Virus record (IMG/VR): IMGVR_UViG_3300029479_000005
DNA from: a virus
Length of the DNA stretch: 58,493 nt
Strand: one strand, 5' to 3'
Of the stretch, positions 38,217 through 55,763 are shown piece by piece (the stretch's first letter is position 1; each line of letters starts with the position of its first letter). A program made the position numbers and the translations under genes. The notes under the pieces were generated by a model, which did not search any database, was not told the DNA's origin, and worked only from the letters and a program-made list of their open reading frames with translations.

Positions 38217-38236
38217 GATGGGAGGAGGTGAATAGA

Positions 38237-38995
38237 ATGAATAAATTATTAAGTAAAACAGGATGTTTCTTTAAGAAAAACGTAGCTACCATTCTTACTG
38301 GTATAGGTACGGCAGGTGTAGTTATTACTGCTGTTAGTGCAATTAAAGCGACACCTAAAGCTTTATATTCTATAGAAGAAGCAGAAAAAGAAAAAGGTGA
38401 TAAATTATCGAATAAAGAAAAAATCATAACTACGACTCATATATATCTACCTACTATAATTATAGGTGTTTCAACTATAGCTTGTATATTAGGTGCAAAT
38501 GTTTTAAACAAAAAGCAACAAGCATCTCTCATAAGTGCATATGCTTTGCTACAAAAATCGTATAATGAATATCGCGATAAAGTTGATGAGTTGTATGAGA
38601 ATAGCAGTATTGTAGATAAAGAGATAGCAAAAGATGTTTATGATAATACAAAACCATCGGTATCGTCTGATGAAAAATGTTTATTTTATGATATGTTTTC
38701 AAAAAGATATTTCGAATCAAATAAAGTAGATGTAATAGCGGCAGAGTATCATTTTAACAGGAATTTCACATTGCGTGGGTATGCTACGTTAAATGAACTA
38801 TATGAGTTTTTAGGCGTTGATAAAATCGATGGTGGAGATTCCATAGGTTGGAGTATAGATGCCGGTTTGGCATTTTATGGCTATAGCTGGGTTGATTTCG
38901 AACACGATTTTGTAACGACCGATGACGGTATGGAAGTATGTTTGATTTCCATGCCATTTGCGCCAACATCCGACTATCTCGATAGTTGGTTGTGA
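38237..38995 (+). CDS. 2-TM membrane protein, paralogue A of a three-member family (252 aa)
   Basis: Shares the N-terminal TM (…ILTGIGTAGVVITAVSAIKATPKA), a second TM, and the C-terminal motifs (YD.FSKRYFES; LNELYEFLG…GW.ID) with 39555..40316 and 42000..42941. Confidence 0.6.
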   Translation: MNKLLSKTGCFFKKNVATILTGIGTAGVVITAVSAIKATPKALYSIEEAEKEKGDKLSNKEKIITTTHIYLPTIIIGVSTIACILGANVLNKKQQASLISAYALLQKSYNEYRDKVDELYENSSIVDKEIAKDVYDNTKPSVSSDEKCLFYDMFSKRYFESNKVDVIAAEYHFNRNFTLRGYATLNELYEFLGVDKIDGGDSIGWSIDAGLAFYGYSWVDFEHDFVTTDDGMEVCLISMPFAPTSDYLDSWL

Positions 38996-39554: not shown

Positions 39555-40316
39555 ATGTCTAAAAATTTGTCAATGATAACGAAAAATATAGGCAGAAAAT
39601 TAAAAAAGCACAGCCCTGAAATATTAACAGGTATAGGAATTGCAGGTATGATTTCGGCTACGGTGATGGCTGTGAGAGCAACTCCCAAAGCTTTACAAAA
39701 TATTGAACATGAAAAAAAAGAGCAGAATGTAACTAAGTTACCACTTATTGAAATGGCAAAATGTACTTGGAAATCTTATATTCCATCAGCGGTAACTATA
39801 ATTGTTTCTTCGGTATGCTTAGTTGGTGCTTCTACTGTTAGCTTTAAAAGAAACACTGCTTTAGCAACTGCTTATGCTATGACAGAGGCTACATTAAAAA
39901 GCTACCAAGAAAAAGTAGTGGAAACTATAGGTGAAAAGAAAGCAGACGCAATAAAAACGAAAGTTGTAAAAGAAAAGATGGATAGCAATCCGATAAATAA
40001 TAAAGAGGTGATAATTACAACCAAAGGAGATACACTTTGTTATGATTCAGTGAGTGGTCGATATTTTAAATCAGATATAGACACTATTAAAAAAATAGTA
40101 AATGAACTAAACAGGCGAATGCTTAGCGAGTCGTATATATCTTTGAATGATTTCTATTATGAACTCGGGTTGAGTTTTACTAAAATGGGTGACCAATTAG
40201 GTTGGAATATAGATAGAGGTCTAATAGATATATCATATGTGCCACTATTGGCGGACGATGGAAATCCGTGTTTAGCTATGGAGTACACAGTTTCACCGGA
40301 GTACGATTATTGTTAA
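39555..40316 (+). CDS. 2-TM membrane protein, paralogue B (253 aa)
   Basis: Motifs KKHSPEILTGIGIAGMISATVMAVRATPKA and …LNDFYYELG…LGWNIDRG. Confidence 0.6.
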   Translation: MSKNLSMITKNIGRKLKKHSPEILTGIGIAGMISATVMAVRATPKALQNIEHEKKEQNVTKLPLIEMAKCTWKSYIPSAVTIIVSSVCLVGASTVSFKRNTALATAYAMTEATLKSYQEKVVETIGEKKADAIKTKVVKEKMDSNPINNKEVIITTKGDTLCYDSVSGRYFKSDIDTIKKIVNELNRRMLSESYISLNDFYYELGLSFTKMGDQLGWNIDRGLIDISYVPLLADDGNPCLAMEYTVSPEYDYC

Positions 40317-40322
40317 ATTAAA

Positions 40323-40352
40323 TACGCGAAAAAAACAATGTGTATTATGGAA
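40323..40352 (+). promoter_or_regulatory. promoter-like motif family member (TACGCGAAAAAAACAATGTGTATTATGGAA)
   Basis: Copy 9 of 11; identical to copy 7. Confidence 0.35.
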
Positions 40353-40395
40353 GAATAATCTTTCAAGTTTTTATATTTTTAAGGAGGAAAATGAA

Positions 40396-40638
40396 ATGAA
40401 TGAAGAACTTATGACAAATGACGAAATTGAAGTAGTCGGAGAACCAGAGGAAGTAATGGACGAGCGTTCAGGTATGCCAACAGGATTGGCTATGCTTATC
40501 GGAGGTGGAATAACATTGGCAGTAGTAGCCGGTGTTAAGAAGGTGAAGAATGTATTAGTCAAGCGTAAGGCAAAGAACGAAGAACCCGTTATGGTGGTTT
40601 CGGATAATGAAAATGAAATCATTGAAGAGGAAGAATGA
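40396..40638 (+). CDS. small membrane protein with acidic termini (80 aa)
   Basis: AAGGAGG ribosome-binding site; TM at GLAMLIGGGITLAVVAGV. Confidence 0.5.
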   Translation: MNEELMTNDEIEVVGEPEEVMDERSGMPTGLAMLIGGGITLAVVAGVKKVKNVLVKRKAKNEEPVMVVSDNENEIIEEEE

Positions 40639-40730
40639 TCCAAATAAAAACTGAACAGAATTCGAAAAAGGGAAGATACCTTTAACTAGGTATTTTCTCT
40701 TTTATTTTTTATTGAGAGGAATATCGCAGA

Positions 40731-40922
40731 ATGAATAAATACATATACAAAGGTCCAGTAAAAAAATTCGATACCGTGGTCGAAACAAATTGGACCGGAA
40801 CAACATACGCAATATCTGAAATAAAAGCCAGGAGTAATTTGGCATATCAGTATAAGAAAAATAATAACCTGACTGCAAGAACAAGGGTATCATTACCTGG
40901 GAAAATAGAATTGGCTAAATGA
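40731..40922 (+). CDS. hypothetical protein (63 aa)
   Basis: GAGAGGAA ribosome-binding site. Confidence 0.4.
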   Translation: MNKYIYKGPVKKFDTVVETNWTGTTYAISEIKARSNLAYQYKKNNNLTARTRVSLPGKIELAK

Positions 40923-40936
40923 AAGGAGGAGTGATC

Positions 40937-41539
40937 ATGGAAAATTACCCATCTAATTCTCATAAAACTAGAGAACAAAACACTGATAAAAAAGTAGAAA
41001 AAGTTGTTTCAGGGAAGACATCAACTAAGAAAAAGTCAGGCATACGCAAGTTGTCTGACACGTTTCTTAGCGAAGATATTGGTAATGTAAAGAATTATAT
41101 TTTTGCAGAGGTATTATTACCAGCAGCCAAGAAATTGGTGTCGGATATTGTTACCAATGGCATCGATATGATGTTATATGGTGAAATCAAAAATAAAAAA
41201 GGCAATTCGTCTAAGGTTTCTTACAGTCGTTATTATGATGACAGACGAGATAGGGATAGGAGCAGAGATTACAGAACCTCATCTATCCGAAGTGGTTTTG
41301 ATTTTGACGAGATTATATTTGAAACGCGTGGGGATGCTGAAGCGGTCCTCGATGCAATGTATGATATTCTAAATCAATATAAAGTTATATCAGTTGCAGA
41401 ACTGTATGATTTAGCAAGTATCACGACGCACAATTATACATGTAATAATTACGGTTGGGTGGACCTCAGAGGATCAAGCGTTGTTCGGGTGCGAGACGGT
41501 TATATTTTAAAGTTACCAAGAGCTTTAGCGATAGATTAA
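40937..41539 (+). CDS. hypothetical protein with a basic N-terminus and an RD/RS-rich middle (200 aa)
   Basis: AAAGGAGG ribosome-binding site 7 nt upstream of the ATG at 40937. Confidence 0.45.
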   Translation: MENYPSNSHKTREQNTDKKVEKVVSGKTSTKKKSGIRKLSDTFLSEDIGNVKNYIFAEVLLPAAKKLVSDIVTNGIDMMLYGEIKNKKGNSSKVSYSRYYDDRRDRDRSRDYRTSSIRSGFDFDEIIFETRGDAEAVLDAMYDILNQYKVISVAELYDLASITTHNYTCNNYGWVDLRGSSVVRVRDGYILKLPRALAID

Positions 41540-41553
41540 GAAAGGAGATTATT

Positions 41554-41730
41554 ATGAAAACATATATTTTAGAGTATATAGTATACACAAGAATTATAGA
41601 CGGTATGTTGGTATCGGAACGAAAGCAGAAAGAAGTACGTTCGAAAACATTACAAGGAGCTATAAAAAGATTATATTTGGAATCTGAAAAGAACTTTGGG
41701 GGATTAACGGCAATTCTAAAGGAGGGATGA
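41554..41730 (+). CDS. hypothetical protein (58 aa)
   Basis: AAAGGAG ribosome-binding site. Confidence 0.4.
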   Translation: MKTYILEYIVYTRIIDGMLVSERKQKEVRSKTLQGAIKRLYLESEKNFGGLTAILKEG

Positions 41731-41733
41731 TTT

Positions 41734-41997
41734 ATGTATGAATCAAAAGATGTGATGGTGAGTCATCCATCGCATTATAAATCGAAAAATGGTATGGAAG
41801 TAATTGATGTGATTGAGGCTTTTACTTCTGAATTAAAAGGTATTGAAGCTACGGATACGGGAAACGTCATAAAATATATTTGCCGTTGGAAGAATAAAAA
41901 CGGCATCCAAGATCTGGAGAAAGCTGAGTGGTATTTAGTGCATCTAATAGATCATGTGAGATCTTTAAACGAAAACAAAGAAAAGGAGAATAAATAA
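41734..41997 (+). CDS. DUF3310-like phage protein (87 aa)
   Basis: The N-terminal motif VSHPSHYKSKNGMEVIDVIEA resembles the DUF3310 signature (HP.HY…G.E.ID.I). Confidence 0.45.
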   Translation: MYESKDVMVSHPSHYKSKNGMEVIDVIEAFTSELKGIEATDTGNVIKYICRWKNKNGIQDLEKAEWYLVHLIDHVRSLNENKEKENK

Positions 41998-41999
41998 TT

Positions 42000-42941
42000 A
42001 TGAATGCGAAAATTACAATAAATAGAATAGGATTACAAATAAAAAAACACAGCCCTGAAATCATGATGGTTGCAGGTGTTGTAGGAACTGTTGTGGGCGC
42101 TGTTATGGCTTGTAAAGCAACTACTAAAATCGATGATATATTGAACGAGACAAAAAACAACGTTGACAAGATACACGCTGCTGAAGAAAAAGGCCAAATA
42201 ACTACCGATAAAGATGGTGAACTTATAATTGAGGAGTATACAGCGGACGATTGTAAAAAAGACTTAAGTATAACATACGCCAAAACAGGTCTGGAATTAG
42301 CTAAGATTTATGCGCCGGCAGTCGTGTTAGGAGCAATAAGCATCGCGTCCATATTAGCTGCTCATAATGTACTTCGTAAGCGTAACGTTGCTTTGATGGC
42401 TGCATACACGGCTATCGATAATAATTTTAAAGATTATCGCAAACGTGTTATCACCAGATTTGGTGAGAAAATCGATAAAGAGCTAAAGTGCGGAGTGAGA
42501 ACGGAAAACGTTACCGAAACAATTGTAGATGAAAATGGTGAAGAAAAAACTGTTGAAAAAACAGTTACAATAGTTGATGATGTAACAACATCAGAGTATA
42601 GACGTGTTTTCGATGCCGGTAATGCGGGTTGGGAAAAAGATGCAGACCATAATCTTTTCTTCTTAAGATCAGTTCAAAATTGGGCAAATGAGGTTTTAAA
42701 AGATAGAGGGCATATTTTTTTAAACGAGTTGTACGATCAACTCGGATATGAAAGAACAAAAGCGGGACAAATCGTCGGATGGGTTTATAGACCGGACGAT
42801 GTTGAGTATAAAGGTGATGGCTATGTTGATTTTGGAATTTATGATTATACACAGCAGGTAAATCGCAATTTCTTGGACGGAGACGACCCAACAGTTATAT
42901 TAACATTTAATGTGGACGGACCAATATATGATCTGATATAG
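42000..42941 (+). CDS. 2-TM membrane protein, paralogue C (313 aa)
   Basis: Motifs KKHSPEIMMVAGVVGTVVGAVMACKATTK and …LNELYDQLG…IVGW. Confidence 0.6.
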   Translation: MNAKITINRIGLQIKKHSPEIMMVAGVVGTVVGAVMACKATTKIDDILNETKNNVDKIHAAEEKGQITTDKDGELIIEEYTADDCKKDLSITYAKTGLELAKIYAPAVVLGAISIASILAAHNVLRKRNVALMAAYTAIDNNFKDYRKRVITRFGEKIDKELKCGVRTENVTETIVDENGEEKTVEKTVTIVDDVTTSEYRRVFDAGNAGWEKDADHNLFFLRSVQNWANEVLKDRGHIFLNELYDQLGYERTKAGQIVGWVYRPDDVEYKGDGYVDFGIYDYTQQVNRNFLDGDDPTVILTFNVDGPIYDLI

Positions 42942-42953
42942 GAGGAATGTGAT

Positions 42954-43472
42954 ATGAAAAAATTATTAGCTATATTATTCGCAGTAACGACTTTAAATAC
43001 TGCATCCGCTTCGGCAACAGAGTACATAGATATATCAACACCGAATATTGATAGTTCGTTTAAGACGTACATGGATTATAGAACAATTACAAGTCAGTCC
43101 AGCGATCAGTATAAATATATTGATCGTTGGGGATGGTCGGATTATGACGGTTTTATGCGTTGCGATGGCGAACGTGATTTGGGAATCGAAAGTGATTATT
43201 ATCTTATTGCGATGGGAAGTTATTACGGCAGTGAAATTGGTTCTAAATATCGAATTACAACTGACACCGGTAATGTGTTTTACGGTTGTCTAGCAGATCA
43301 AAAAGATGATCGAGACACAAATTATACTCATCAATGGAGCTATAATAATGATGTTGTAGAATTCATAGTCGATACTCAAAAGTTACCTAATATTATAAAA
43401 TTACATGGCAATTGTAATGTATATATGCCGCTTAACGGTAAGGTAGCTAAAGTTGAAAAAATTATATTTTAA
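42954..43472 (+). CDS. secreted protein with a signal peptide (172 aa)
   Basis: MKKLLAILFAVTTLNTASASA followed by a hydrophilic domain. Confidence 0.5.
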   Translation: MKKLLAILFAVTTLNTASASATEYIDISTPNIDSSFKTYMDYRTITSQSSDQYKYIDRWGWSDYDGFMRCDGERDLGIESDYYLIAMGSYYGSEIGSKYRITTDTGNVFYGCLADQKDDRDTNYTHQWSYNNDVVEFIVDTQKLPNIIKLHGNCNVYMPLNGKVAKVEKIIF

Positions 43473-43483
43473 GGAGTATACAG

Positions 43484-43777
43484 ATGGGACAGGCAATAGC
43501 ATTTGGATTGATACTTGTTAGTATCAGTGCTATTATACATTTTAAAAAATATCAATTCAATAGATTAAAGACGAGAAAAAAATACGAACGCAGAAAAAAG
43601 ATATTTGAATATAAAAACAAAATGTTTGAAGAGATGTGCCGTTGGAATAAGGAACATCCTAAGCCTACATATACAGTCGCCGAACAAAATGTTGTATATA
43701 AAGGTGGCAGTGATCTTTTAGACGATGATGCGTTCAAGCAGGCGTTAAGAAGAAAAGGAGGTGTTACAAATGTATAA
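43484..43777 (+). CDS. membrane-anchored basic protein (97 aa)
   Basis: N-terminal TM. Confidence 0.45.
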   Translation: MGQAIAFGLILVSISAIIHFKKYQFNRLKTRKKYERRKKIFEYKNKMFEEMCRWNKEHPKPTYTVAEQNVVYKGGSDLLDDDAFKQALRRKGGVTNV

Positions 43778-43858
43778 CAGTTTGACTTTTATATTTGCGG
43801 CGATGGCTGGAATTTGTTTGATAGGTGGGTTAGCTGTATTGAAAGGAGGACGCTAATC

Positions 43859-44008
43859 ATGGAGGGATTGGATAATATTATTTATATGTTAGATGAAATG
43901 CTGGACACAAAAAGAAAGCGTCATATTACTGGCGGAATTTTATTGAGTATTTCCGCTTTGTTTGGCGGATTGGCTATAACAGTGATGTCTATTGGTAAAG
44001 AAGAGTAA
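43859..44008 (+). CDS. small membrane protein (49 aa)
   Basis: GAAAGGAGG ribosome-binding site 7 nt upstream of the ATG at 43859; C-terminal TM. Confidence 0.4.
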   Translation: MEGLDNIIYMLDEMLDTKRKRHITGGILLSISALFGGLAITVMSIGKEE

Positions 44009-44022
44009 AGGAGAAGAATATT

Positions 44023-44541
44023 ATGAGTGCTAAGAATTTTATATTTTGGGCTTGCGGTGCTATTTGTGGCTTTGGTGCGTCATATATGATGTTGAAAAGA
44101 AAATATGAAAATCTGATTCAGGAAGAAATTGAATCGGTCAAAGCGGTATATAAGAAAAACCAAGATGTTAAAGATAAAGAGACCGAAGAATCTCCGATCG
44201 ATAAGGCGGATTCGATAATAAATCAAAACGGATATAATCCGCTACGATATGGAGCTGTGAAATCAATACAAGTGATATCTCCCGATGAATTTGGAGATGA
44301 GCCAGATTATGAAAAGATTGAATTGTCATATTATGATGATGGTTTCTTAACAGATGATAATGATGAAATTATTAATGATTCGAAAAAAATAATAGGCGAT
44401 GCACTTGAGCATTTTGGTGAACATGAGGAAGATGTCGTTATGGTTGTTAATCATGAATTGCAAGTTTATTATGAAATCATAAGAGATACAAGGCGTTATG
44501 TGGATGTGGTGTCTAAAACACCATATAAAGTGGAGGTATAA
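44023..44541 (+). CDS. N-terminally membrane-anchored acidic protein (172 aa)
   Basis: GGAGAAG ribosome-binding site. Confidence 0.5.
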   Translation: MSAKNFIFWACGAICGFGASYMMLKRKYENLIQEEIESVKAVYKKNQDVKDKETEESPIDKADSIINQNGYNPLRYGAVKSIQVISPDEFGDEPDYEKIELSYYDDGFLTDDNDEIINDSKKIIGDALEHFGEHEEDVVMVVNHELQVYYEIIRDTRRYVDVVSKTPYKVEV

Positions 44542-45075
44542 ATGACAAAAGACGAGTTGGATAACGAATATTTTAAATGGATGTATCAGCTCGTAAGACC
44601 ATCACATGGATCGTATAAGATATTGCTTTGTCAATTGCATGGTATAATTTTTTATAATTTAATTGACATGGATGCTGATAGAGCAGAAGATGGTATAAAT
44701 CTTAGATATCGTTTTGGATATGAAAACGGTTACGAGAGTGCAATGATTGCATCCTGTCTCGACAATCGTCCATGTAGTGTACTAGAAATGATGGTGGCTC
44801 TCGCAATAAAAATCGAAGAACAAATAATGGATGATCCCGATATTGGTAACAGAACGGGTTTATGGTTTTGGAAGATGATTGAAAATCTCGGATTAAAAAC
44901 CATGCGCGATGCTGTAATCGATACTGATTATGTTGAGAAAATTATATTTCGATTCCTTGATAGAAATTATCAACGAGATGGATCAGGCGGATTATTCATA
45001 GTACATGGACATGGGGATCTTAGGAACGTTGAGATCTGGTATCAAATGTTATGGTACTTAAATGATATTTTATGA
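44542..45075 (+). CDS. hypothetical protein (177 aa)
   Basis: ORF translationally coupled to the preceding gene. Confidence 0.5.
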   Translation: MTKDELDNEYFKWMYQLVRPSHGSYKILLCQLHGIIFYNLIDMDADRAEDGINLRYRFGYENGYESAMIASCLDNRPCSVLEMMVALAIKIEEQIMDDPDIGNRTGLWFWKMIENLGLKTMRDAVIDTDYVEKIIFRFLDRNYQRDGSGGLFIVHGHGDLRNVEIWYQMLWYLNDIL

Positions 45076-45090
45076 TGGAGGTGATTTTTT

Positions 45091-45258
45091 ATGGACAAAA
45101 CAATTATCGAACTACATATGACGGTAGATCGTTTAAAAAATATTGAAGAATGCTTGAACAAACAAATCGCATTTCGAAGAAAAGTAACAGTGGCAGTTTT
45201 GCTTGCAGGAACTTATGTAATTTATAAAAAGATAAGGAGTAAACAGAATAATGATTGA
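45091..45258 (+). CDS. small protein with a C-terminal TM (55 aa); overlaps the polymerase start
   Basis: Translated by hand; GGAGGTGA ribosome-binding site 6 nt upstream. Confidence 0.35.
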   Translation: MDKTIIELHMTVDRLKNIEECLNKQIAFRRKVTVAVLLAGTYVIYKKIRSKQNND

Positions 45259-48200
45259 CTTTATGATTGTTGCTACGAAGTGCAGCAAAAAAGGCGTGAT
45301 TGAAATATATCCAAAGTTCATCATTAAAAAGAGTTCCGATCTTATGATTCGAGGAGGCGATTTCTATGCTATTTGGATTGAAGAACGGGGACTATGGTCC
45401 ACGGACGAGCAAGATGCATTACAATTAATAGATAAGGAGCTAGATACATTTGCTAAAGAAAACAAAGACCGTTTTGAAGGAACTGTAAAGATATTGCATA
45501 TGTGGGACGCCGAGTCCGGTATGATAGACTCATGGCACAAGTATTGTCAAAAACAAATGAGAGACAATTTTCACATGCTTGACGAAAAACTTATATTTTC
45601 AAACAGTCCCACAAATAAAAAAGATTATGCAAGCAAACGACTTAATTATCCTCTGGAAAAAGGGGATATTTCAGCGTATGATAAATTAATGTCTACTTTA
45701 TATTCGGAAGAAGAACGCCATAAGATCGAATGGGCTATTGGTTCAATTGTGGCGGGAGATTCTAAACATATTCAAAAATTTATGGTTCTATATGGTGCGG
45801 CGGGTACGGGTAAATCAACAGTTTTAAATATTATACAACAATTATTTCAGGGTTACTATTCGGTATTTGATGCAAAAGCATTGGGATCGAGTAGTAACTC
45901 TTTTGCGTTAGAGGCATTTAAAACGAACCCCCTAGTTGCTATTCAACATGACGGTGATTTATCTAGAATTGAGGATAATACCAGATTAAACAGTTTGGTG
46001 TCGCATGAGCTCATGACCGTAAACGAAAAATTTAAATCAACATATTCAAATCAGTTCAAATGTTTCTTATTTATGGGTACGAATAAACCAGTTAAAATCA
46101 CAGATGCAAAGTCGGGGTTGATTCGAAGATTGATCGATGTTTCTCCATCTGGAAATAAATTGAATTCGAAAGAGTACAAAACAATAGTGAAACAAGTTGG
46201 GTTTGAATTAGGAGCTATTGCTGACTATTGTTTGAATTTATATTTAGACAATACAGGATATTATGACGATTACGTACCTATAAGTATGATGAGTGCATCT
46301 AATGACTTTTATAATTATATAATGGATTCATATTATGTATTCGCTAAAGAAAACGGCACAACATTGAAAGCGGCTTGGGAAATGTACAAGCAGTATTGTG
46401 ATGAGGCAAAAGTACCTTATCCGTTATCACAAAGAGCTTTTAAGGAAGAGCTAAAGAATTACTTTAAGGATTATAAAGAACGTCATACGTTAAGTGATGG
46501 CGTTCGTGTCAGGTCATATTATAGTGGTTTCAAAACTGAAAAAATCGATAATTTAACTGTTATTGATGCCGAGAAAAAAAATGACAGCTATTTAATTGTA
46601 TTTGATAAACAGGAATCTATATTTGATAAAGAATGTGCCGGTTGCGTTGCGCAATACGCAACCAGTAATGAAACTCCATATGAAAGTTGGGATAATGTCA
46701 CAACAAAATTGGAAGAACTCGATACATCGAAACTTCATTACGTTAAACTCCCAGTAAATCATATAGTTATAGATTTCGATATTAAAGACGAATACGGTAA
46801 AAAATCATTTGAGAAGAATCTAGAGGCGGCTAGTAAATGGCCGGCTACTTATGCCGAATTAAGTAAAAGCGGAGCAGGTATTCATCTTCATTATATTTAC
46901 ACAGGAGATCCAACACGCCTGAGTAGAATATATGACGAAGATATAGAAATTAAAGTTTTTATAGGAAAAAGTTCATTAAGACGTAAACTGTCTAGGTGTA
47001 ATGATTTACCTATTGCAACAATTAGCTCTGGATTACCATTGAAAGGAGAAAACAAAATGATAAATATAGAAGCTGTTAAAAGCGAAAAGGGACTTAGAAC
47101 ATTAATAAAGCGTAATCTTAATAAAGAAATCCATCCAGCAACAAAACCGAGTATTGATTTTATACATAAAATATTGGACGATGCTTATAATAGTGGTTTG
47201 AAATATGACGTTACCGATATGAGAAATGCTATACTAGCGTTTGCTGCTAATAGTACAAATCAATCGGATTACTGTATAAAGCTTGTAAGTAAAATGAATT
47301 TTAAATCAGAGGAACCATCTGTCGGAAAAAATAATGACGATGCAAAGCTTATTTTCTACGATGTAGAAGTCTTCCCTAATTTATTCTTAGTCAATTGGAA
47401 ATTTGAGGGTAAGGGTAAGCCTGTTGTACGGATGATTAATCCGTCACCGGCTGAGGTAGAAGAACTTATGAGATTCAGACTGGTTGGGTTTAACTGCCGA
47501 AGATATGATAACCATATACTCTACGCACGGCTAATGGGTTATACAAATGAACAGTTGTATAATTTATCACAGAAAATAATTAATGGCAGTCCCAATTGTT
47601 TCTTTGGAGAGGCATACAATGTATCATATACAGATGTTTATGATTTTTCAAGTAAAAAACAATCATTAAAGAAGTTTGAAATTGAATTGGGTATTCACCA
47701 TCAGGAACTCGGATTGCCTTGGGATCAACCGGTACCTAAAGAATTATGGGCAAAAGTTGCAGAATACTGTGATAACGATGTTATTGCAACGGAAGCTGTA
47801 TTTAATGCCAGAAAAGCAGATTTTATTGCCAGAGAGATATTAGCTGATGTGGCGGGCATGACTGTGAACGATACAACAAATTCTCTTACAACCAGAATTA
47901 TATTTGGTAAGAACAGAAAGCCGCAGGATCAATTTAATTATCGTGATATGGGACTCCCATCGAGTGATGATATTCTAATGGACGGTTTTGATGATTATAC
48001 CAGATTTGATAATCAGAATAGACCTATATTTCCAGGTTATGAATTTAAATTCGGAAAATCCATGTATAGAGGTGAAGAAATCGGTGAGGGAGGATATGTG
48101 TATTCCGAACCAGGTATGTATAGTAACATTGCGCTATTGGATATTGCTTCTATGCATCCGAGTAGCATTATAGCTGAACAGTTATTTGGCTGCGAATATA

Positions 48201-49234
48201 CAAAACGGTTTCAGGAAATAAGAGATGCTCGTGTTGCAATTAAGCACAATGATTTTGAGACTGCCAAAACAATGCTGGATGGAAAGTTAGCAAAGTATCT
48301 TACAGACGAGGGAGCTGCAGCAGATTTGGCACAAGCTTTGAAAATCGCTATTAATTCAGTTTACGGTTTAACAGCAGCAAAATTTGATAATCCATTTAAA
48401 GATAATCGAAATGTCGATAATATTGTCGCAAAACGTGGCGCTTTATTCATGGTTAACCTAAAACATGAAGTACAAGCAAGAGGATTCACAGTTGCTCATA
48501 TAAAAACCGATTCAATAAAAATTCCAAATGCAACGTCTGAAATTATTCAGTTTGTATCGGATTATGGTAAAATGTATGGTTATATATTTGAGCATGAGGC
48601 TACATACGACAGAATGTGTCTTGTAAATGATGCTGTTTATATCGCAAAGTATAAAGACGGAAAGCATGCCGGAGAATGGACTGCCACGGGAACACAGTTT
48701 CAAGTACCATATGTATTCAAAACGCTGTTTAGTAAAGAAGACATTGCTTTTGAGGATATGTGCGTAACAAATAGTGTGACTTCTAGTTTATATTTGGATA
48801 TGAATGAGAAATTGCCTCAATTAACAATTGAAGAGGAAAAAGAATTAGCAAAATTACATAAGGCTTTGGATTCTGAAGATTCTGAGAATATGGAAAAAGT
48901 GCTTAAGTCGTATAGGTATGATGCTGAATATGCCAGCGAAAGATATTCTGAACTTCGTAAAAAAGAGGAAGAATCGCATAACTATGTATTTATCGGAAAA
49001 GTCGGGCAATTTTGCCCTATAAAACAGGGATGTAATGGCGGACTTTTAATGAGAGAAAAAGACGGCAAATATTATGCCGCAGGAGGTAGTAAGGGATACA
49101 GATGGCTTGAAGCCGAGATGGTAAAGGAACTCGGAAAAGAAGCGGATATCGATCGCTCTTATTATGAAAATATGGTCAACGATGCCATTTGTGATATTTC
49201 ACAATATGGTGATTTTGAATGGTTTGTAAATTAA
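45251..49234 (+). CDS. fused SF3 helicase - archaeo-eukaryotic (AEP) primase - family-B DNA polymerase with a 3'-5' exonuclease (1327 aa)
   Basis: SF3 helicase: Walker [10 protein letters not shown] and motif C FMGTN. AEP primase: IDFDIKD and [11 protein letters not shown]. Exonuclease: ExoI FYDVEVF, ExoII FNCRRYD, Exo[11 protein letters not shown]. Polymerase B: motif [10 protein letters not shown], motif [10 protein letters not shown], motif C IKTDSI. Confidence 0.8.
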
Positions 49235-49260
49235 TAACAATGAAGAAAGAGGTAACAAAA

Positions 49261-49716
49261 ATGTCAAGAGTAGAAAATTTAGCTATAGAAAATGCAAGAA
49301 TTATATTTAGAAATTTCGCAGGAAACGAGAGTAAATACAACAGAGCCGGAGACAGAAATTTTTGTGTGATAATAGATGACGCGGATGAGGCTGAACAATT
49401 AGCCAGAGATGGTTGGAATGTAAAAATTCTTCCGGCTAGAGACGAAGATGAAGAATCAAAGCATTATATTCAGGTTTCGGTAAGCTTCCGAAATATTCCG
49501 CCCAAAATCATAATGATAACCAAAAGAGCACAGACACAACTTGATGAGGAAAGTATCGAGACACTTGATTTTGCAGATATAATCAACGTGGATCTTATTT
49601 TGAATCCTTATGAATGGGAAGCAAACGGTAAAAGCGGCATAAAGGCTTATCTGAAAACTATGTATGTAACTATTCAAGAAGATGAATTTGCGGAAAAGTA
49701 TGCATCTAAACAATAA
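49261..49716 (+). CDS. hypothetical replication-associated protein (151 aa)
   Basis: AGAAAGAGG ribosome-binding site. Confidence 0.45.
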
Positions 49717-49786
49717 AAAAGATATTCGCAAGGGGTGTCTATGCTAAAATAGGCACTCTTTGTTTTATTCGAAAGGAGTTATAATC

Positions 49787-50095
49787 ATGCTAACTATAAA
49801 AATTCCAATGTTGTCCAATTTTTCTTTAGGACAACTTGTATGTACTAATAGGATAAACGACAAAATAGAGCAAGATAACGAATTTAAAAAATTTGTAGAG
49901 GAATCTTTGGCTAGATATACCAGTAGTGACTGGGGTGATACATGTAATGTTGATGCGAAAATGAATAATGATGCTATACGAAATGGCGATAGAATTTTAG
50001 CTGTTTATACACAAAAAAATACAGATGTTACAATCTGGATTATAACAGAGTGGGACAGAAGTGTAACAACGATTCTATTTCCAAATGAGTATTAA
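49787..50095 (+). CDS. hypothetical protein (102 aa)
   Basis: AAAGGAG ribosome-binding site. Confidence 0.45.
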   Translation: MLTIKIPMLSNFSLGQLVCTNRINDKIEQDNEFKKFVEESLARYTSSDWGDTCNVDAKMNNDAIRNGDRILAVYTQKNTDVTIWIITEWDRSVTTILFPNEY

Positions 50096-50110
50096 ACACG
50101 GAGGATAAAA

Positions 50111-51334
50111 ATGTCAAAAATCGGATTACGGGATTATCAAAAAAATGCAATCGAAAGAATGCAAAATGGATGTATCTTGTGTGGTGGTGTGGGAAGTGGT
50201 AAATCTCGAACGGCACTCGGATATTATTATGTCCAAAATGGTGGAGATATTGATAGTGATGAATATGTGCCAATGGACGATAACAATGTAAAAGACTTAT
50301 ATGTTATCACTACGGCACGAAAAAGGGATAGTAAAGAATGGGAATCTGATATGATACCGTTTTTACTTTCTACAAATAAGGATGTAAATTTATACAGCAA
50401 TAAAGTTATAGTTGATTCATGGAACAACATAAAAAAATATGAGAATATCAAGAATGCGTTCTTTATATTTGATGAGCAAAGAGTTGTCGGAAGTGGCACT
50501 TGGGTAAAGGCTTTCCTAAAGATAACCAAAGATAACGAATGGATTCTATTGTCGGCGACGCCTGGCGATACTTGGCAAGATTATATTCCGGTATTCATAG
50601 CTAATGGTTTTTATAAAAATCGAACAGAATTTACTCGTGAACACATCGTATATAAACGATTCAGTAAATTTCCTCAAATAGACAGATACATTAATACAGG
50701 ACGCTTAATCCGGTTACGAAATAGAATTTTGATAAACATGGATTTTCGTAGGAAAACAGTATCGCATCATGAAGATATATATACCAAGTATGATATTTCG
50801 ACATACAAGGATACTATGCGTAATCGTTGGAACCCATATAAGGATAAACCGGTGGAAACCGCGAGCGAGCTATGTTATTTATTAAGGAGAATAGTTAATA
50901 GCGACGACTCACGTCAAGTAGCAGTTTGCGAGTTGTTTGAAAAACATCCGAAACTAATTATATTTTATAACTTTGATTATGAATTGGAAATATTAAAGGA
51001 AATTTCGTATGGCGACGATGTTGAAATCGCAGAATGGAACGGGCACAAACATCAGCCTATTCCAGAGAGCACCCGTTGGGTATATTTAGTACAGTATAAT
51101 GCAGGTTGCGAGGGGTGGAACTGTGTTAAAACCGATACTATTATATTTTATAGTCAAAATTATAGTTATAAGGTTATGGCTCAAGCTGCCGGACGAACAG
51201 ACAGATTAAATACACCGTTTTCTGATTTATATTATTATCATTTGAAATCAAGAAGCGGAATTGATTTAGCTATCAGCAAAGCATTGGATAGCAAGAAAAA
51301 GTTTAATGAATTGAGGTATGTTAAATGGAAATAG
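50111..51334 (+). CDS. SF2 (SNF2/DEAD-like) helicase
   Basis: Motif I GGVGSGKS, motif II FDEQ, motif III LSATPG, motif VI QAAGRTDR. Confidence 0.7.
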   Translation: MSKIGLRDYQKNAIERMQNGCILCGGVGSGKSRTALGYYYVQNGGDIDSDEYVPMDDNNVKDLYVITTARKRDSKEWESDMIPFLLSTNKDVNLYSNKVIVDSWNNIKKYENIKNAFFIFDEQRVVGSGTWVKAFLKITKDNEWILLSATPGDTWQDYIPVFIANGFYKNRTEFTREHIVYKRFSKFPQIDRYINTGRLIRLRNRILINMDFRRKTVSHHEDIYTKYDISTYKDTMRNRWNPYKDKPVETASELCYLLRRIVNSDDSRQVAVCELFEKHPKLIIFYNFDYELEILKEISYGDDVEIAEWNGHKHQPIPESTRWVYLVQYNAGCEGWNCVKTDTIIFYSQNYSYKVMAQAAGRTDRLNTPFSDLYYYHLKSRSGIDLAISKALDSKKKFNELRYVKWK

Positions 51335-51482
51335 ATTATCAAGAAGTATATTTCAATATGTATTGTAAAACGTGTGCTCATAAAAATAAGAACGAACGCG
51401 AAGATCCGTGTAACGAATGCTTAGAACAACCATATGTTCAAAATTCCCATATACCACAGAATTATAAAAAGGAGACGAAAAT

Positions 51483-51899
51483 ATGAATGAACACATTGTA
51501 GACTATATAGGTAAAGCGGCTTTATTAGAACAGACTGCAGAGGAAGCTTCTGAATTATCACAGGCATGTCTTAAAATGGCAAGAAAAATAAGAGGCGAAA
51601 ATCCAACCCCCAAAGACACCAATGATATTTTGGAGAATTTAAATGAAGAAATAGCGGATGTTAGTGCATGCTGTAACGAATTAGTAGATGGCGGAATCGC
51701 ATCGTACGACTCTATAGGTGGCATAACAATACGAAAGTATAAGCGATGGTACGAAAGGGTAAAAAACGAAGAAAATAATAGGATGAAACAGAAAGAATGC
51801 TTAGGGGATATTTGCAGTAATTGTGGTGGAAGGATAGATGTACATGACAAATATTGCAGACATTGCGGTAAAAATTGCAGAGAGGTGAGTCGTTTATGA
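51483..51899 (+). CDS. MazG-like nucleotide pyrophosphohydrolase with a C-terminal zinc ribbon
   Basis: EEASELSQA…LNEEIADV carries the EExxE…E..D pattern; followed by CSNCGG…CRHCG. Confidence 0.55.
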   Translation: MNEHIVDYIGKAALLEQTAEEASELSQACLKMARKIRGENPTPKDTNDILENLNEEIADVSACCNELVDGGIASYDSIGGITIRKYKRWYERVKNEENNRMKQKECLGDICSNCGGRIDVHDKYCRHCGKNCREVSRL

Positions 51900-52084
51900 G
51901 TGCGAAAAAAGAAAAAGTTCCGGTAACATTTTTCGATTATAAAAAATATGCTGTTAGAGCAGCAAAAGAATTATTTTATCCGCAAGAAACGGTTGAAAAA
52001 ATCAGACAGGCTAAAAACGATGATGAAATTACATCTATATTAACAAATGCACGAAAACATAATAAACGAAAGGGGAGTAAATAA
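51896..52084 (+). CDS. small basic protein (62 aa)
   Basis: AGAGGTGAG ribosome-binding site. Confidence 0.4.
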   Translation: MSAKKEKVPVTFFDYKKYAVRAAKELFYPQETVEKIRQAKNDDEITSILTNARKHNKRKGSK

Positions 52085-52086
52085 TT

Positions 52087-52764
52087 ATGAATATGGTAAA
52101 TTGGGCAGAAAATGAAGTGAAAATTGCTTGCGAAAAAGAGCATCCTGGTCTTAAAGAGGGAGAATTTGATTACGGTTGTGCATGCTATCAGAGTGCATTA
52201 AAGGCTTATAAAAGTTTAGCCGAAGATGGTCATAGTGGATATAGTTGGGGTGTAACTGCATCTATTCTAAAAAGATTGATGGACAATAAGCCATTAACTT
52301 CTATTGAGGATACGGATGATACTTGGTCTCGTGTTACATGTGGAAAAGATGATCGCACTGAGTATCAATGCAAAAGAAAAGCATCGTTGTTTAAGACTAT
52401 TTATGACGACGGTAGAATCGAATACCGTGATCGTGATCAATTTATTTGCGTTGATATTCATGATGGAAGTACATACATATTAGGTCTTATTAACAATGTT
52501 ATGCGAGAAAAATTTCCTATAACTTTCCCCTATATGCCTGGAAATGCTATCGAGGTATACTGCGAGGATTTTTTGACAGATCCTAAGAATGGTGCTTTTG
52601 ATACTGTCGGGATTATATATTGCAAGACTGATGATGGTAAAGAGGACATAAAAAGATATTTTAAAAAATCTTCTAACGATAGTGGTTGGGAAGAAATTAA
52701 TTTTGACGAGTATATGAAGAGAAAGGTAATGGCTGATAAGCTAAAGGAGAGCAAAGATGATTAA
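52087..52764 (+). CDS. hypothetical protein (225 aa)
   Basis: ORF only. Confidence 0.45.
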   Translation: MNMVNWAENEVKIACEKEHPGLKEGEFDYGCACYQSALKAYKSLAEDGHSGYSWGVTASILKRLMDNKPLTSIEDTDDTWSRVTCGKDDRTEYQCKRKASLFKTIYDDGRIEYRDRDQFICVDIHDGSTYILGLINNVMREKFPITFPYMPGNAIEVYCEDFLTDPKNGAFDTVGIIYCKTDDGKEDIKRYFKKSSNDSGWEEINFDEYMKRKVMADKLKESKDD

Positions 52765-53533
52765 ATTCGAAAATGTGGAAGTAATGGGTTGGGAGGCTGC
52801 CATAAGAGGTATGCGTAATCCAATGAACTCATGGAAGAAAAGTGATAGTTTCTTTTGCAAGAAAGGAGACTGTATAAACTGTGAAGTAAATGATGACTGC
52901 GGAGCTAAACAACTCGATTTTGATATTGGACCTAACGATTATGATCTTATGATTAAACTTCGCAATGCGGGTACAGACCATCGTAAATTCATGCGGATGA
53001 TTACAGTGTATGTTGATGTGACGGCTCCTTTATATTGGTGGAAAGAATTTGATACATATAAAGTAGGTACTGTCGCAAACTCTTGCTCGACGATGCATAA
53101 GATTGCGGATAAGGAGTTTGAACTCGACGATTTCAGCTGTGAGCATCTTTTGCAATCTTCTCCGACGCAACTCGAACTTTATTCGGCTTTAGCTTGCGCT
53201 CCCACTTGCGATGGAAAACCTCAATGGACACCAATGATGCATTTGTTAAGCACTATTGCGGGGTTAAATCATTATCGCGAAAAGTATCTCGAAACCAAAG
53301 ACAAAAAATATTGGTGGCAGATAATCCAGCTCTTGCCGAGCTCTTATAATCAGAGACGTACGGTTATGTTAAACTATGAAGTTTTGGCTAATATTTATAA
53401 GTCTCGTAAAAATCATAAGCTTGATGAGTGGTGTATATTCTGCGACTGGATTAAGAAGCTGCCATATTCGGAGATTATTACAGGAAAGAGTGAAATGAAC
53501 GATCAGGAGGAAGAAAATGAACAAAACAAATAG
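52757..53533 (+). CDS. ThyX-like (flavin-dependent thymidylate synthase fold) protein. It lacks the canonical RHR / S.RY phosphate-binding motifs and carries a Cys-rich insertion.
   Basis: FENVEVMGWEAAIRGMRNPMNS aligns with ThyX GFVELVDVMG…AARVS, and VTAPLYWWKEF aligns with VKAPIFVARQWF. DTY sits where RHR should be, STMH where SGRY should be. Insertion: CKKGDCINCEVNDDCG. Confidence 0.4.
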   Translation: MIKFENVEVMGWEAAIRGMRNPMNSWKKSDSFFCKKGDCINCEVNDDCGAKQLDFDIGPNDYDLMIKLRNAGTDHRKFMRMITVYVDVTAPLYWWKEFDTYKVGTVANSCSTMHKIADKEFELDDFSCEHLLQSSPTQLELYSALACAPTCDGKPQWTPMMHLLSTIAGLNHYREKYLETKDKKYWWQIIQLLPSSYNQRRTVMLNYEVLANIYKSRKNHKLDEWCIFCDWIKKLPYSEIITGKSEMNDQEEENEQNK

Positions 53534-53747
53534 AAAAAACATAGTAGATATTGTATATTCGCAAATTTCAAACGTTATAGAATTGAGAACGTATGGTGAT
53601 GATGGATTAAATCAACCATTATGTGCAGGTGATATCAGCAAAGTCCTAGAACGTCTTCCAGCAGACGCAAAAGTTATATTTGTAGACGATGTTGTGGGCG
53701 TTATTAATATCAGAGGAGGTGAAAAAGAATGTTTTTTGCAAAAGTAA
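53517..53747 (+). CDS. hypothetical protein (76 aa)
   Basis: ORF only. Confidence 0.4.
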   Translation: MNKTNRKNIVDIVYSQISNVIELRTYGDDGLNQPLCAGDISKVLERLPADAKVIFVDDVVGVINIRGGEKECFLQK

Positions 53748-53944
53748 TATTGTTAATAGTAACTATAAATCTATGTGTATACTTGTTGGTTGAAAGGATT
53801 ACAAATTGCATAGAAAAATGCGCGACCGTGAAAGCTTACGAAAAAATCATAGAAACCAATCTAACTTTAAAAAGTGGCAGTTTAAAAGATTTCGTTGATG
53901 AAAACGCTGACAAGGAGGCAACTAATGCTGAACAAAAAAGATAA
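53729..53944 (+). CDS. small membrane protein (71 aa)
   Basis: N-terminal TM at VILLIVTINLCVYLLV. Confidence 0.4.
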   Translation: MFFAKVILLIVTINLCVYLLVERITNCIEKCATVKAYEKIIETNLTLKSGSLKDFVDENADKEATNAEQKR

Positions 53945-54134
53945 AGACCTGAGGAAAAATGCATCGGGGTGCAATGATCCGACAGCGTATGAAGTTTTAA
54001 AAAATTTGGAGGGTGAAGAAGAACGCTTTCATAAATTGTTACATACAATCTTTTATATTTGCAAATTAGCGGATTTTGAGATTGAGGAAAGAATTGTTTT
54101 GATTGATAGGAGGACGGGAAAAACATGGAGATGA
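53925..54134 (+). CDS. hypothetical protein (69 aa)
   Basis: AAGGAGG ribosome-binding site 6 nt upstream of the ATG at 53925. Confidence 0.4.
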   Translation: MLNKKDKDLRKNASGCNDPTAYEVLKNLEGEEERFHKLLHTIFYICKLADFEIEERIVLIDRRTGKTWR

Positions 54135-54322
54135 TATATTTTGAAGTATATTTAAAAGATGGAACTACTTTTGATTTTAACTACAAATGTAACAAAATCG
54201 ATTATGGCGACGATGATTATATCGTTTGCATATGTAAAGAAAAGGATGAAGAACTTGTGTATAGAACACTGGCGATAATTCCTCGTGAAAATGTGAAATA
54301 CATATTAGCCAAAGGACTTTGA
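54125..54322 (+). CDS. hypothetical protein (65 aa)
   Basis: ORF only. Confidence 0.4.
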   Translation: MEMIYFEVYLKDGTTFDFNYKCNKIDYGDDDYIVCICKEKDEELVYRTLAIIPRENVKYILAKGL

Positions 54323-54329
54323 TCGACAT

Positions 54330-54360
54330 TCGCGAAAAATGCAATCACTCTTATGAAAGG
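54330..54360 (+). promoter_or_regulatory. promoter-like motif family member (TCGCGAAAAATGCAATCACTCTTATGAAAGG)
   Basis: Copy 10 of 11. Confidence 0.3.
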
Positions 54361-54371
54361 AGAGTGATATT

Positions 54372-54563
54372 ATGAGATATTTTTTAGCAGTAAATAACAA
54401 GCAACTCGGAATATGTCTGAGAATGCTATATGCTGAACGAATTCAAGGATTTGTTGAAACTGTTATGAACGGTAAAGGCAGAATCGAATTTCATATTGGT
54501 ATAGCAGTGGACGACGAGTTATTTGAAAAATTGAATAGGCGCTATAAAATATTAATATCATAG
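54372..54563 (+). CDS. hypothetical protein (63 aa)
   Basis: GAAAGGAGAG ribosome-binding site. Confidence 0.45.
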   Translation: MRYFLAVNNKQLGICLRMLYAERIQGFVETVMNGKGRIEFHIGIAVDDELFEKLNRRYKILIS

Positions 54564-54644
54564 CGGTTTCTTTCAAACGGTAAGAGGTCATAAACATGGC
54601 CTTTTACTTTTCATCCGATTATGATATACTGTATATAAAGAGGT

Positions 54645-54836
54645 GTGAATATAATGAAAGTAAAATCTAAAATGTCATGTCCTATTCGTAAAGAAGATGG
54701 AAGTTGGACTACGGTTATTAAAGAATTTGAAGAAGAGATTCCTGATAAAGGACGACACTCCTTGATTTGTAATAAATGTATTGAAGAATCGTATCCGGAA
54801 TGTCGAAAATGGTGTCCGATGGAAAAGAATAAATAA
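54645..54836 (+). CDS. Cys-rich small protein (63 aa; C-x…CNKC…C…C)
   Basis: AAGAGGTG ribosome-binding site. Confidence 0.45.
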   Translation: MNIMKVKSKMSCPIRKEDGSWTTVIKEFEEEIPDKGRHSLICNKCIEESYPECRKWCPMEKNK

Positions 54837-54839
54837 AAT

Positions 54840-55225
54840 TGCATCAGGAGAGAATGTGGTCATTTATATTTTTTAAAAGTGGGTTTAAGGTCACTTTTCT
54901 AGAAAAAGATATTTTTAGAATGATATTTTTATCTTTTTCAGAGATGAAATTGGTCATAAAAATGGTCAAATGCCCACTTTTAGCCCACTTTTTGAATATT
55001 AATGACCTGCTAAAAATGGCTTACCTATGCGGTTTTGACGGGTCTGCGGTCAAATGCCCACTTTTATTTCTATTTAATTGCGAATAAAAAAATATATAAA
55101 TATATATAACATATACAACGAAAACGGGTTTTTGACCATCTGATATATATATATATATATATCAGAACTCATTGATTTAACCGAATGAATGTGATACAAT
55201 AAAACGGATTAATATATTAAAAGAT
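54840..55225. other. putative origin of replication: GGTCA(T/A/C)(T/A)T iteron-like repeats, two 19-bp direct repeats, an AT-rich block and a 26-bp (AT)n palindrome
   Basis: GGTCA copies at about 54858, 54889, 54952, 54964 and 55048, and inverted at 55003 and 55133. GGTCAAATGCCCACTTTTA at 54964-54982 and 55048-55066. CTGATATATATATATATATATATCAG at 55140-55165. Confidence 0.45.
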
Positions 55226-55238
55226 GGAGGGATTGATC

Positions 55239-55589
55239 ATGACAAAACACGATAAAGAATATGAAAAACTTTATGAGCATTTACAACGTTCAGGATTCGA
55301 ATTCGGTTATAGCACCCGTATAGGTAAATCTAAAATTATATTTGAAGAAAGCATTAAAAACATTCCATCTTCAAAGAGAAATCACGATAACATTCCTTTA
55401 TTTGTGAAATGCAACAAATGTGATGAATATATGGATTTTCAACAAGGCAAAACAGATGTGCTCGATGGTAGATGGATATGTCCAGTGTGCGGAAACAATG
55501 TTCGAGAACGTACAGTATATAATCAAATTGAAAGAGAAAATTTCAATGATAACTATGAGTATGAAGAAATATATAACGAAAAGTTATAA
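55239..55589 (+). CDS. zinc-ribbon protein (116 aa; CNKC…CPVCG)
   Basis: GATGGAGGG ribosome-binding site. Confidence 0.5.
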   Translation: MTKHDKEYEKLYEHLQRSGFEFGYSTRIGKSKIIFEESIKNIPSSKRNHDNIPLFVKCNKCDEYMDFQQGKTDVLDGRWICPVCGNNVRERTVYNQIERENFNDNYEYEEIYNEKL

Positions 55590-55626
55590 TGACTTTTGTT
55601 AAATGATAATTTATATTTTTTATTGA

Positions 55627-55660
55627 GAGCTTGTGTTAACTACGCAGGCTCTTTCTTTTC
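55627..55660 (+). terminator. rho-independent terminator (AGAGCTTG…CAGGCTCT followed by a T-run)
   Basis: Hairpin read directly. Confidence 0.5.
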
Positions 55661-55661
55661 G

Positions 55662-55692
55662 TACGCGAAAAAAACATGCCCTTTTATGGAGA
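55662..55692 (+). promoter_or_regulatory. promoter-like motif family member (TACGCGAAAAAAACATGCCCTTTTATGGAGAG)
   Basis: Copy 11 of 11. Confidence 0.3.
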
Positions 55693-55763
55693 GAAGGAGA
55701 TATACGTAAAAAAATACGCATCATTTTCTTTTTATATTTTTTGCAGAAAGGAGAATTTAAATA

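Follow-up and report, generated by a model that had tools for sequence, protein, structure and literature searches.

The window analysed here, the whole stretch of 58,493 nucleotides deposited as IMG/VR virus record IMGVR_UViG_3300029479_000005, carries on its plus strand a gene for a protein of 1327 amino acids that unites predicted helicase, primase, exonuclease and polymerase modules (Table 1). With a probability of about 0.9, the product belongs to the HelPrimPolB family and would be the replicative enzyme of a temperate siphophage resembling Faecalibacterium phage FP_oengus, with four modules and a family-B DNA polymerase (PolB) of the primer-dependent kind. A sequence-only reading of the same DNA had described the product as a fusion of a superfamily 3 (SF3) helicase, an archaeo-eukaryotic primase (AEP) and a proofreading PolB. 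This interpretation was examined by family searches, predicted structures with fold searches, profile-profile comparison in the case of the primase, and residue conservation in an alignment of 98 homologues, which share 37-98% identity with the window protein and to which all statements on conservation refer. Taken together, family, fold and profile searches and conservation support the three activities and the order helicase, primase, exonuclease and polymerase.

Reading frame and family membership

The open reading frame (ORF) is uninterrupted, starts with ATG and is preceded by the Shine-Dalgarno sequence AAGGAG, which sits 9 nt 5' of the start codon. Given the composition of the window (36% A, 28% T), stops would make up 8% of the codons of a random frame, and the chance of 1327 open codons is about 1e-48. 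The N-terminus MIDF... agrees with the family consensus MDFY..., in which D3 and F4 are nearly invariant. The single 1327-residue ORF of the sequence-only reading is thus confirmed, and all ten motifs quoted there are present in one copy each and in the order claimed.

The ORF is matched over its full length by phrog_4210 (2060 bits, profile positions 1-1285 of 1304). A tblastn search of deposited phage genomes matched 378 records, 252 of which cover at least 80% of the protein in one colinear piece. Among them, the 'helicase/polymerase' of FP_oengus is 61% identical, proteins annotated 'DNA primase/polymerase' from phages of Gordonia, Arthrobacter, Streptomyces, Rhodococcus and Curtobacterium reach 46-53%, and those of Lactococcus phages about 40%. 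With gp55 of Lactococcus phage 1706, BLASTP gave 915 bits and 40% identity between residues 19-1321 and 22-1298. A metagenome protein collection holds proteins that are 96-99% identical, and at least 8000 relatives. The primase together with the helical bundle that follows it falls into 473 clusters (50% identity), and among the best 150 of these almost every one has the module at about residues 445-700 of a protein of 1250-1450 residues. This near-constant position indicates that the architecture is fixed and widespread. The Walker A and B motifs, sensor 1, the Arg finger, the AEP residues D-x-D, H and E, Exo I-III and Pol motifs A-C are invariant or nearly so.

The fusion of an SF3 helicase with an AEP primase and a PolB was published in 2016 with 1706 gp55 as the exemplar (PMC4889955). 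In 2020 the group was named HelPrimPolB and described as belonging, in divergent form, to the EpsilonN-like PolB clade and as prevalent in metagenomes (PMC7544198). Furthermore, FP_oengus, Lactococcus phages and an actinophage supercluster have been reported to share the HelPrimPolB gene and a YonO-like RNA polymerase (bioRxiv 10.1101/842583); the window carries both genes. The gene is therefore a further member of a family whose fusion is already known and common in phages, and the description of it as an unusual all-in-one protein was overstated, given the publication in 2016, the naming in 2020 and the 252 deposited phage genomes.

The helicase module

Residues 1-433 form an SF3 helicase of the D5/P4 type, which would begin with an N-terminal tier and ends in a helical/beta-hairpin domain. 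Pfam DUF5906 matches above threshold at residues 180-293 (E 4e-13), the NCBIfam model of the C-terminal part of P4-family primases matches residues 171-396 (2.3e-15), and the family profile search retrieves the primase-helicase C962R of African swine fever virus (ASFV). K188, T190, D234, N278, R292 and R293 are invariant, while D236 is found in 91 of the 98 homologues. In the fold search, about 340-420 residues align to SaPI5 Pri-Rep and to the D5/E5 helicase fragments of vaccinia and mpox viruses. When the model of the N-terminal half was compared with the PDB by Foldseek, the top 50 matches were all D5-type helicases, so that this search gives no separate view of the AEP domain. Matches to DUF5906 and the P4 model, the D5-type fold and the invariant motif residues thus bear out the helicase claim.

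The first 125 residues probably fall within the part aligned to SaPI5 Pri-Rep and D5/E5, and probably represent the N-tier (D5_N/collar-like) of the helicase ring. At the other end, residues 301-433 stand where D5/P4 helicases have their C-terminal DNA-binding domain and may likewise bind DNA; within this segment Pfam Pox_D5 matches weakly at residues 352-414 (E 0.003, under its curated cut-off).

The primase module

Of the three activities, the primase is the least secure assignment. The alignments and the pattern of conserved residues identify residues 447-599 as a predicted NrS-1-like AEP of the PrimPol type with a Ser-Lys-Ser loop at the site of the zinc finger found in many AEPs. Compared by hhalign with the single NrS-1 sequence, the primase sub-alignment gave 17 columns at a probability of 45%. 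Against an alignment of 45 relatives of the NrS-1 N300 fragment, the probability was 92% (E 6.7e-7, 85 columns). Here, D508-F-D510 falls on NrS-1 D78-L-D80, S538-K-S540 on S108-P-S110, H545 on H115 and E566 on E139. All of D508, D510, S538, S540, H545, H547 and E566 are invariant, and the AEP domain is the best conserved part of the N-terminal half, with a column identity to the window sequence of at most 75%. The primase domain holds no Cys/His zinc-finger cluster and has the invariant S538-K-S540 in its place; the S108-P-S110 loop of NrS-1 has been shown to substitute for a zinc finger. The profile-profile match, with catalytic residues in register and invariant, upholds the AEP primase of the sequence-only reading, and the NrS-1-like, zinc-finger-less assignment is apparently more specific than the published description of the family.

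The catalytic domain is followed by an alpha-helical bundle with H628, T631, A665 and S668 as conserved residues. PrimPols carry a helix-bundle/PriCT domain after the catalytic domain (PMC5862659, PMC8718748), and residues 608-688 stand in this position, which suggests a corresponding function. No PriCT was among the 15 Pfam families listed, and the hhalign match to NrS-1 ends at motif III.

The exonuclease and polymerase module

The C-terminal part combines a DEDD 3'-5' exonuclease with the palm, fingers and thumb of a PolB. Residues 685-1318 are matched by phrog_1252 (DNA polymerase, 1.5e-48), and a single-sequence search retrieved Escherichia coli Pol II. NCBIfam models of Pol II score 2.8e-8, which is far under their cut-offs, whereas the profile search against PDB sequences places E. 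coli Pol II at 4.5e-6, with Pol alpha and archaeal PolBs ranking behind. The residues of Exo I-III and Pol motifs A-C are invariant except for N748, which is kept in 97 of the 98 homologues. The claim of a proofreading family-B polymerase is thus sustained by phrog_1252 and Pol II matches, the PolB fold and the invariant motifs.

Two insertions distinguish the polymerase of this lineage, and both are missing from about 85-90% of the aligned homologues. The first, of 25 residues, is present in 14 of the 98, namely the window protein, FP_oengus and close gut relatives. The second measures 56-66 residues in the window protein and 10 close relatives, 16 in FP_oengus and 5 in most homologues.

Table 1. 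Features of the HelPrimPolB gene, its product and the adjoining replication genes; positions are those of the window, and pLDDT is the predicted local distance difference test score of the model.
Feature	Nucleotides	Residues	Strand	Basis or marker residues
Complete HelPrimPolB gene	45251..49234		+	ORF listing, ATG start, 1327 codons plus stop
N-terminal beta-rich domain and helices	45251..45625	1-125	+	AlphaFold2 model, pLDDT ~85-93
SF3 (D5/P4-type) AAA+ ATPase core	45668..46150	~140-300	+	Walker A G182-T190, D234/D236, N278, R292/R293
Helicase C-terminal helical and beta-hairpin domain	46151..46549	301-433	+	Model secondary structure, weak Pox_D5
AEP/PrimPol catalytic domain	46589..47047	447-599	+	Motif I D508-x-D510, S538-K-S540 loop, motif II H545, motif III E566
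Alpha-helical bundle after primase	47072..47314	608-688	+	Four helices, pLDDT 81-90
DEDD 3'-5' exonuclease domain	47348..47890	~700-880	+	ExoI D704/E706, ExoII N748/D753, ExoIII Y839/D843
Clade-specific insertion 1, low-confidence loop between exonuclease and palm	47951..48025	901-925	+	pLDDT ~64-73
PolB palm, fingers, thumb	48023..49231	~925-1327	+	D964; K1031/N1035/Y1038/G1039; K1085-T-D1087-S
Lineage-specific three-helix insertion 2, thumb region	48788..48985	~1180-1245	+	pLDDT ~80
Walker A GAAGTGKST		182-190		Motif search of ORF
Sensor GTN		276-278		Motif search of ORF
AEP motif IDFDIKD		507-513		Motif search of ORF
Second AEP primase motif		540-550		Motif search of ORF
ExoI FYDVEVF		702-708		Motif search of ORF
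ExoII NCRRYD		748-753		Motif search of ORF
ExoIII YCDND		839-843		Motif search of ORF
Pol motif A DIASMHPSS		964-972		Motif search of ORF
Pol motif B KIAINSVYG		1031-1039		Motif search of ORF
Pol motif C IKTDSI		1084-1089		Motif search of ORF
Phage ssDNA-binding/single-strand annealing protein	49219..49716		+	Pfam PF24083 4.4e-62; phrog_4787 3.7e-68
SF2 helicase	50111..51334		+	phrog_62 DNA helicase 3.4e-61; 65% identity to FP_oengus helicase

Comparison with known systems

The published exemplar 1706 gp55 is likewise phage-encoded and has the domain order SF3 helicase, AEP/PrimPol and PolB in common with the window protein, and both possess a motif C with a single Asp, putatively the divergent form described for the group. 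In contrast to phage 1706, the window represents a gut Firmicutes phage of the FP_oengus type, and its protein has the additional residues 901-925 and the three-helix segment at about residues 1180-1245. The closest cultured relative is FP_oengus (Oengusvirus; AUV56521), with the identity of 61% extending over the full length. The two phages are syntenic for the integrase, SF2 helicase, Cas4-like nuclease, YonO-like RNA polymerase and HNH endonuclease, and their genomes measure 58,394 bp (window, without the overlap of its ends) and 58,391 bp (FP_oengus). FP_oengus possesses ThyX, which the window lacks, and is without most of insertion 2. A megablast search of positions 40000-58493 (18.5 kb) against phage genomes gave no match, which together with the identity of 61% indicates that FP_oengus is a different species or genus.

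For the N-terminal half, the best structural matches to residues 1-433 are poxvirus D5/E5, ASFV C962R and SaPI5 Pri-Rep, which share with the window protein a D5-type SF3 helicase with N-tier and C-terminal domain fused to an AEP. Unlike the window protein, they carry the AEP N-terminal to the helicase and have no DNA polymerase. The AEP precedes the helicase in 94% of the primase-helicase fusions of a 2016 survey (PMC4889955). NrS-1 gp28 (PrimPol N300 plus helicase CTR; PDB 6a9w, 6k9c) also has the PrimPol before the helicase, so that the order in the window protein is reversed; it lacks a PolB, its PrimPol being the replicative polymerase, and its loop reads S-P-S instead of S-K-S.

The only other published three-in-one fusion is Pas55 of Actinoplanes phage phiAsp2, composed of SF3 helicase, DnaG primase and PolA (PMC4889955). 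According to its description, Pas55 is set apart by a non-homologous TOPRIM/DnaG primase and a family A polymerase, and is therefore an analogous, not a homologous, solution. With E. coli Pol II and the cores of Pol alpha, delta and epsilon, the window protein shares the family-B fold, Exo I-III and motifs A and B, and the spacing of its motifs A, B and C resembles that of E. coli Pol II. In contrast to these enzymes, it has no long N-terminal domain before the exonuclease and reads KTDS in motif C, and identity is only about 12-18%.

Weight of the evidence and alternative explanations

Several results weigh against the assignment as a HelPrimPolB replicative enzyme. The Pfam scan of the window protein gave no AEP model above threshold, and neither DNA_pol_B nor DNA_pol_B_exo1 was reported at E <= 1. 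Only DUF5906 passes, and judged by Pfam without further evidence two of the three domains would have been missed; more sensitive methods closed this gap. With a profile made from the primase region, zero matches were obtained among PDB sequences even at E 10. Motif C reads K-T-D-S with a single Asp instead of DTDS, and does so in all 98 sequences. A literature search yielded no enzymology or structure paper for any HelPrimPolB member and no measured activity for any family member. Finally, the hexamer, the translocation polarity, the primer chemistry and the primer hand-off are all inferred from relatives. On motif C, the 2020 study states that HelPrimPolB differs strongly from its EpsilonN-like relatives in motif C/KxY and that PolBs with a single Asp can be active (PMC7544198). 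As for the AEP, 22 family members were scanned singly, and Pfam Prim-Pol PF09250 appeared in 13 (best E 0.0028) and AEP-TOTE PF22548 in 9 (best E 4.6e-4), both sub-threshold; no further Pfam family recurred in more than two of the 22. These low scores are due to divergence and do not speak for absence.

The sub-threshold Pfam models, the missing PDB match and the lack of a zinc finger would also fit an AEP that is no replicative primase but a degenerate spacer or a repriming/translesion PrimPol, with the host DnaG providing the primers; many PrimPols indeed function in damage tolerance. This is nevertheless improbable, since D508, D510, S538, S540, H545 and E566 are kept without exception in 98 diverse homologues and align with the catalytic D78, D80, S108, S110, H115 and E139 of NrS-1, whose PrimPol is active as a primase-polymerase and likewise has no zinc finger. 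In addition, this stretch is the most conserved of the N-terminal half and holds a fixed position in hundreds of clusters, and the scanned ORFs revealed no primase of the DnaG type. Still less credible is a protein-primed polymerase of the phi29/pPolB type beside an AEP-like region that is not used for priming. The spacing between motifs A and B is 67 residues (134 in phi29) and that between B and C 56 (75 in phi29); being 67 and 19 residues shorter, they leave no room for the terminal protein regions TPR1 or TPR2. The check for phi29-type insertions was thus negative, the polymerase region needing only small gaps in its alignment with E. coli Pol II, and this outcome fits a primase-dependent polymerase. 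Higher scores in the fold search go to Pol alpha, E. coli Pol II, Pol delta and RB69. The ends of the contig join through an overlap of 99 nt and show no inverted terminal repeats, no search aimed at a terminal-protein gene having been made. Genes for a large terminase and an integrase are present, and the AEP catalytic residues are invariant. The published phylogeny places HelPrimPolB among the primer-dependent PolBs in the EpsilonN-like clade (PMC7544198). The polymerase is consequently taken to be of the primer-dependent type, protein priming being effectively excluded.

It is next to inconceivable that the long ORF is an assembly chimera, or that a frameshift has merged two or three genes in it; nothing was found in favour of this artefact, which the sequence-only reading itself had named as a possible refutation. 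Length and domain order are identical in the 252 independently sequenced phage genomes, the ORF is colinear in isolates from Faecalibacterium, Lactococcus, Gordonia, Arthrobacter, Streptomyces and Rhodococcus, and the proteins of 96-99% identity come from other assemblies. This full-length colinearity, which extends to thousands of metagenomic proteins, speaks against a frameshift or an assembly fusion. A seemingly split gene in Streptomyces phage Bing, returned in two BLAST pieces, is really a full-length gene plus a small upstream paralogous AAA fragment.

Separate products released from internal starts were also considered. Three ATG or GTG codons in frame, M603 (47057-47059), M740 and V950, are preceded by a sequence like a Shine-Dalgarno element and were judged to be chance. 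M603 lies in the linker between primase and helical bundle with AAGGAG upstream; the Met is not conserved, other residues standing there in the family consensus, and the AAGGAG derives from Lys-Gly-Glu codons, for which reasons this start is regarded as fortuitous.

Proposed mechanism

In the predicted structures, the HelPrimPolB chain folds into four modules, which are connected by three short linkers of low confidence (residues 434-446, 600-607 and 689-695), and in the alignment the residues proposed as catalytic for each of the four activities are conserved throughout the family. The scheme that follows draws on general knowledge of SF3 helicases and on the relatives with solved structures, namely D5/E5, SaPI5 Pri-Rep, NrS-1 and C962R. 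The helicase part would probably assemble into a hexameric ring, which moves 3'->5' on single-stranded DNA (ssDNA) and opens the fork. On the exposed strands the tethered PrimPol, aided by the helical bundle, would start short primers. The tethered PolB may then take these over, either in cis or from another subunit of the ring, and would extend them with proofreading. The neighbouring ssDNA-binding/annealing protein, the SF2 helicase and the Cas4-like exonuclease would complete the replication module.

The PrimPol of NrS-1 starts chains with dNTPs (deoxynucleoside triphosphates). As the primase of the window protein resembles this enzyme, priming with DNA rather than RNA is a live possibility. 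That the protein indeed primes with DNA and that a hexamer with six primases and six proofreading polymerases might form a self-sufficient replisome is a speculative extension which we regard as rather unlikely. If true, no primer removal would be needed, and a minimal one-gene replisome would be at hand for DNA replication or amplification in vitro.

As a discovery the gene is of small value, since this type of fusion has been in the literature from 2016, has had its name from 2020, is annotated in hundreds of actinophage genomes and has its own PHROG family. As an enzyme it is of moderate interest; one chain would hold fork opening, priming, synthesis and proofreading. The large family, for which no biochemical or structural study was found, makes a good subject for studies on how primers are handed over when primase and polymerase are both covalently tethered to a helicase ring, and HelPrimPolB is suited to asking whether one protein can serve as a replication system.

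Neighbouring replication genes

From its first ATG, the ORF of the annealing protein overlaps the polymerase stop by 16 nt. The sequence-only reading had also named an SF2 helicase, MazG and a ThyX-like gene and had deduced a largely host-independent replication. The nearby SF2 helicase is secured by the matches given in Table 1. The MazG-like gene (51483..51899) has matches to PHROG families of nucleoside triphosphate pyrophosphohydrolases, which are its sole support. A ThyX-like gene was not recovered: the ThyX of FP_oengus has no tblastn match in the window, and the candidate ORFs gave no Thy1 Pfam match. The ORFs of suitable size, starting at 52087 and 52757, match a Tad3 domain and a PHROG family of unknown function, respectively. 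Host independence is not established, as a non-exhaustive scan of the ORFs revealed no clamp, clamp loader, ligase or RNase H.

The ORF at 52087-52764 (plus strand, 225 residues) matches over its first 123 residues Pfam PF25185 Tad3, an inhibitor of type I Thoeris (5.6e-31). The match suggests a possible anti-defence function for this gene, which lies within the replication/nucleotide module and may be the ORF that was taken for 'ThyX-like'. An HNH endonuclease (phrog_4321), a small endonuclease-like ORF (phrog_93) and a Cas4/RecB-like exonuclease (phrog_3953) are located at 2246-2650 and 55764-56583 on the plus strand, where they flank the RNA polymerase gene; the last is 71% identical to the 'cas4 family nuclease' of FP_oengus.

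Genome context

Positions 1-99 and 58395-58493 of the window are identical. From this exact direct overlap of the contig ends, a circular assembly and a complete genome of 58,394 bp can be deduced. One gene crosses the junction in frame (56587-58493, then 1-949) and encodes about 918 residues without the 33 duplicated codons. Its product is 47-60% identical to the 'putative RNA polymerase' of FP_oengus and holds a DFDGD loop, as reported for single-subunit RNA polymerases of the YonO/crAss type (bioRxiv 10.1101/842583).

A cluster of repeats lies in a gene-poor, AT-rich stretch at 54860-55170. Here, three copies of GCCCACTTTT stand in direct orientation (chance expectation 0.06) and a further one is inverted, and the 19-nt unit GGTCAAATGCCCACTTTTA is present in two copies 84 nt apart. 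Next comes an (AT)-rich palindrome at 55092-55166. In the equivalent gap free of coding sequences, FP_oengus has a 19-nt repeat ending in CCCACTT, again in two copies, 83 nt apart. The arrangement makes this region a candidate for a replication origin or an operator region.

The tyrosine-type integrase (32643-33875) is the only gene on the minus strand and is 47% identical to the integrase of FP_oengus. About 450 nt from it, ARAGORN reports a tRNA-like element at 34327-34401 on the plus strand ('tRNA-???', with a two-base anticodon), which may be an attP-associated tRNA fragment.

An ORF of 3241 residues (11509-21234, plus strand) has matches to tape-measure families along its length and endolysin-like segments at about residues 107-463; this is very long for a siphophage of 58 kb. 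Upstream of the polymerase gene, three paralogues of the unknown-function family phrog_2152 are encoded on the plus strand at 38228-38995, 39555-40316 and 42000-42941, and the one that was compared with Pfam matched DUF6353.

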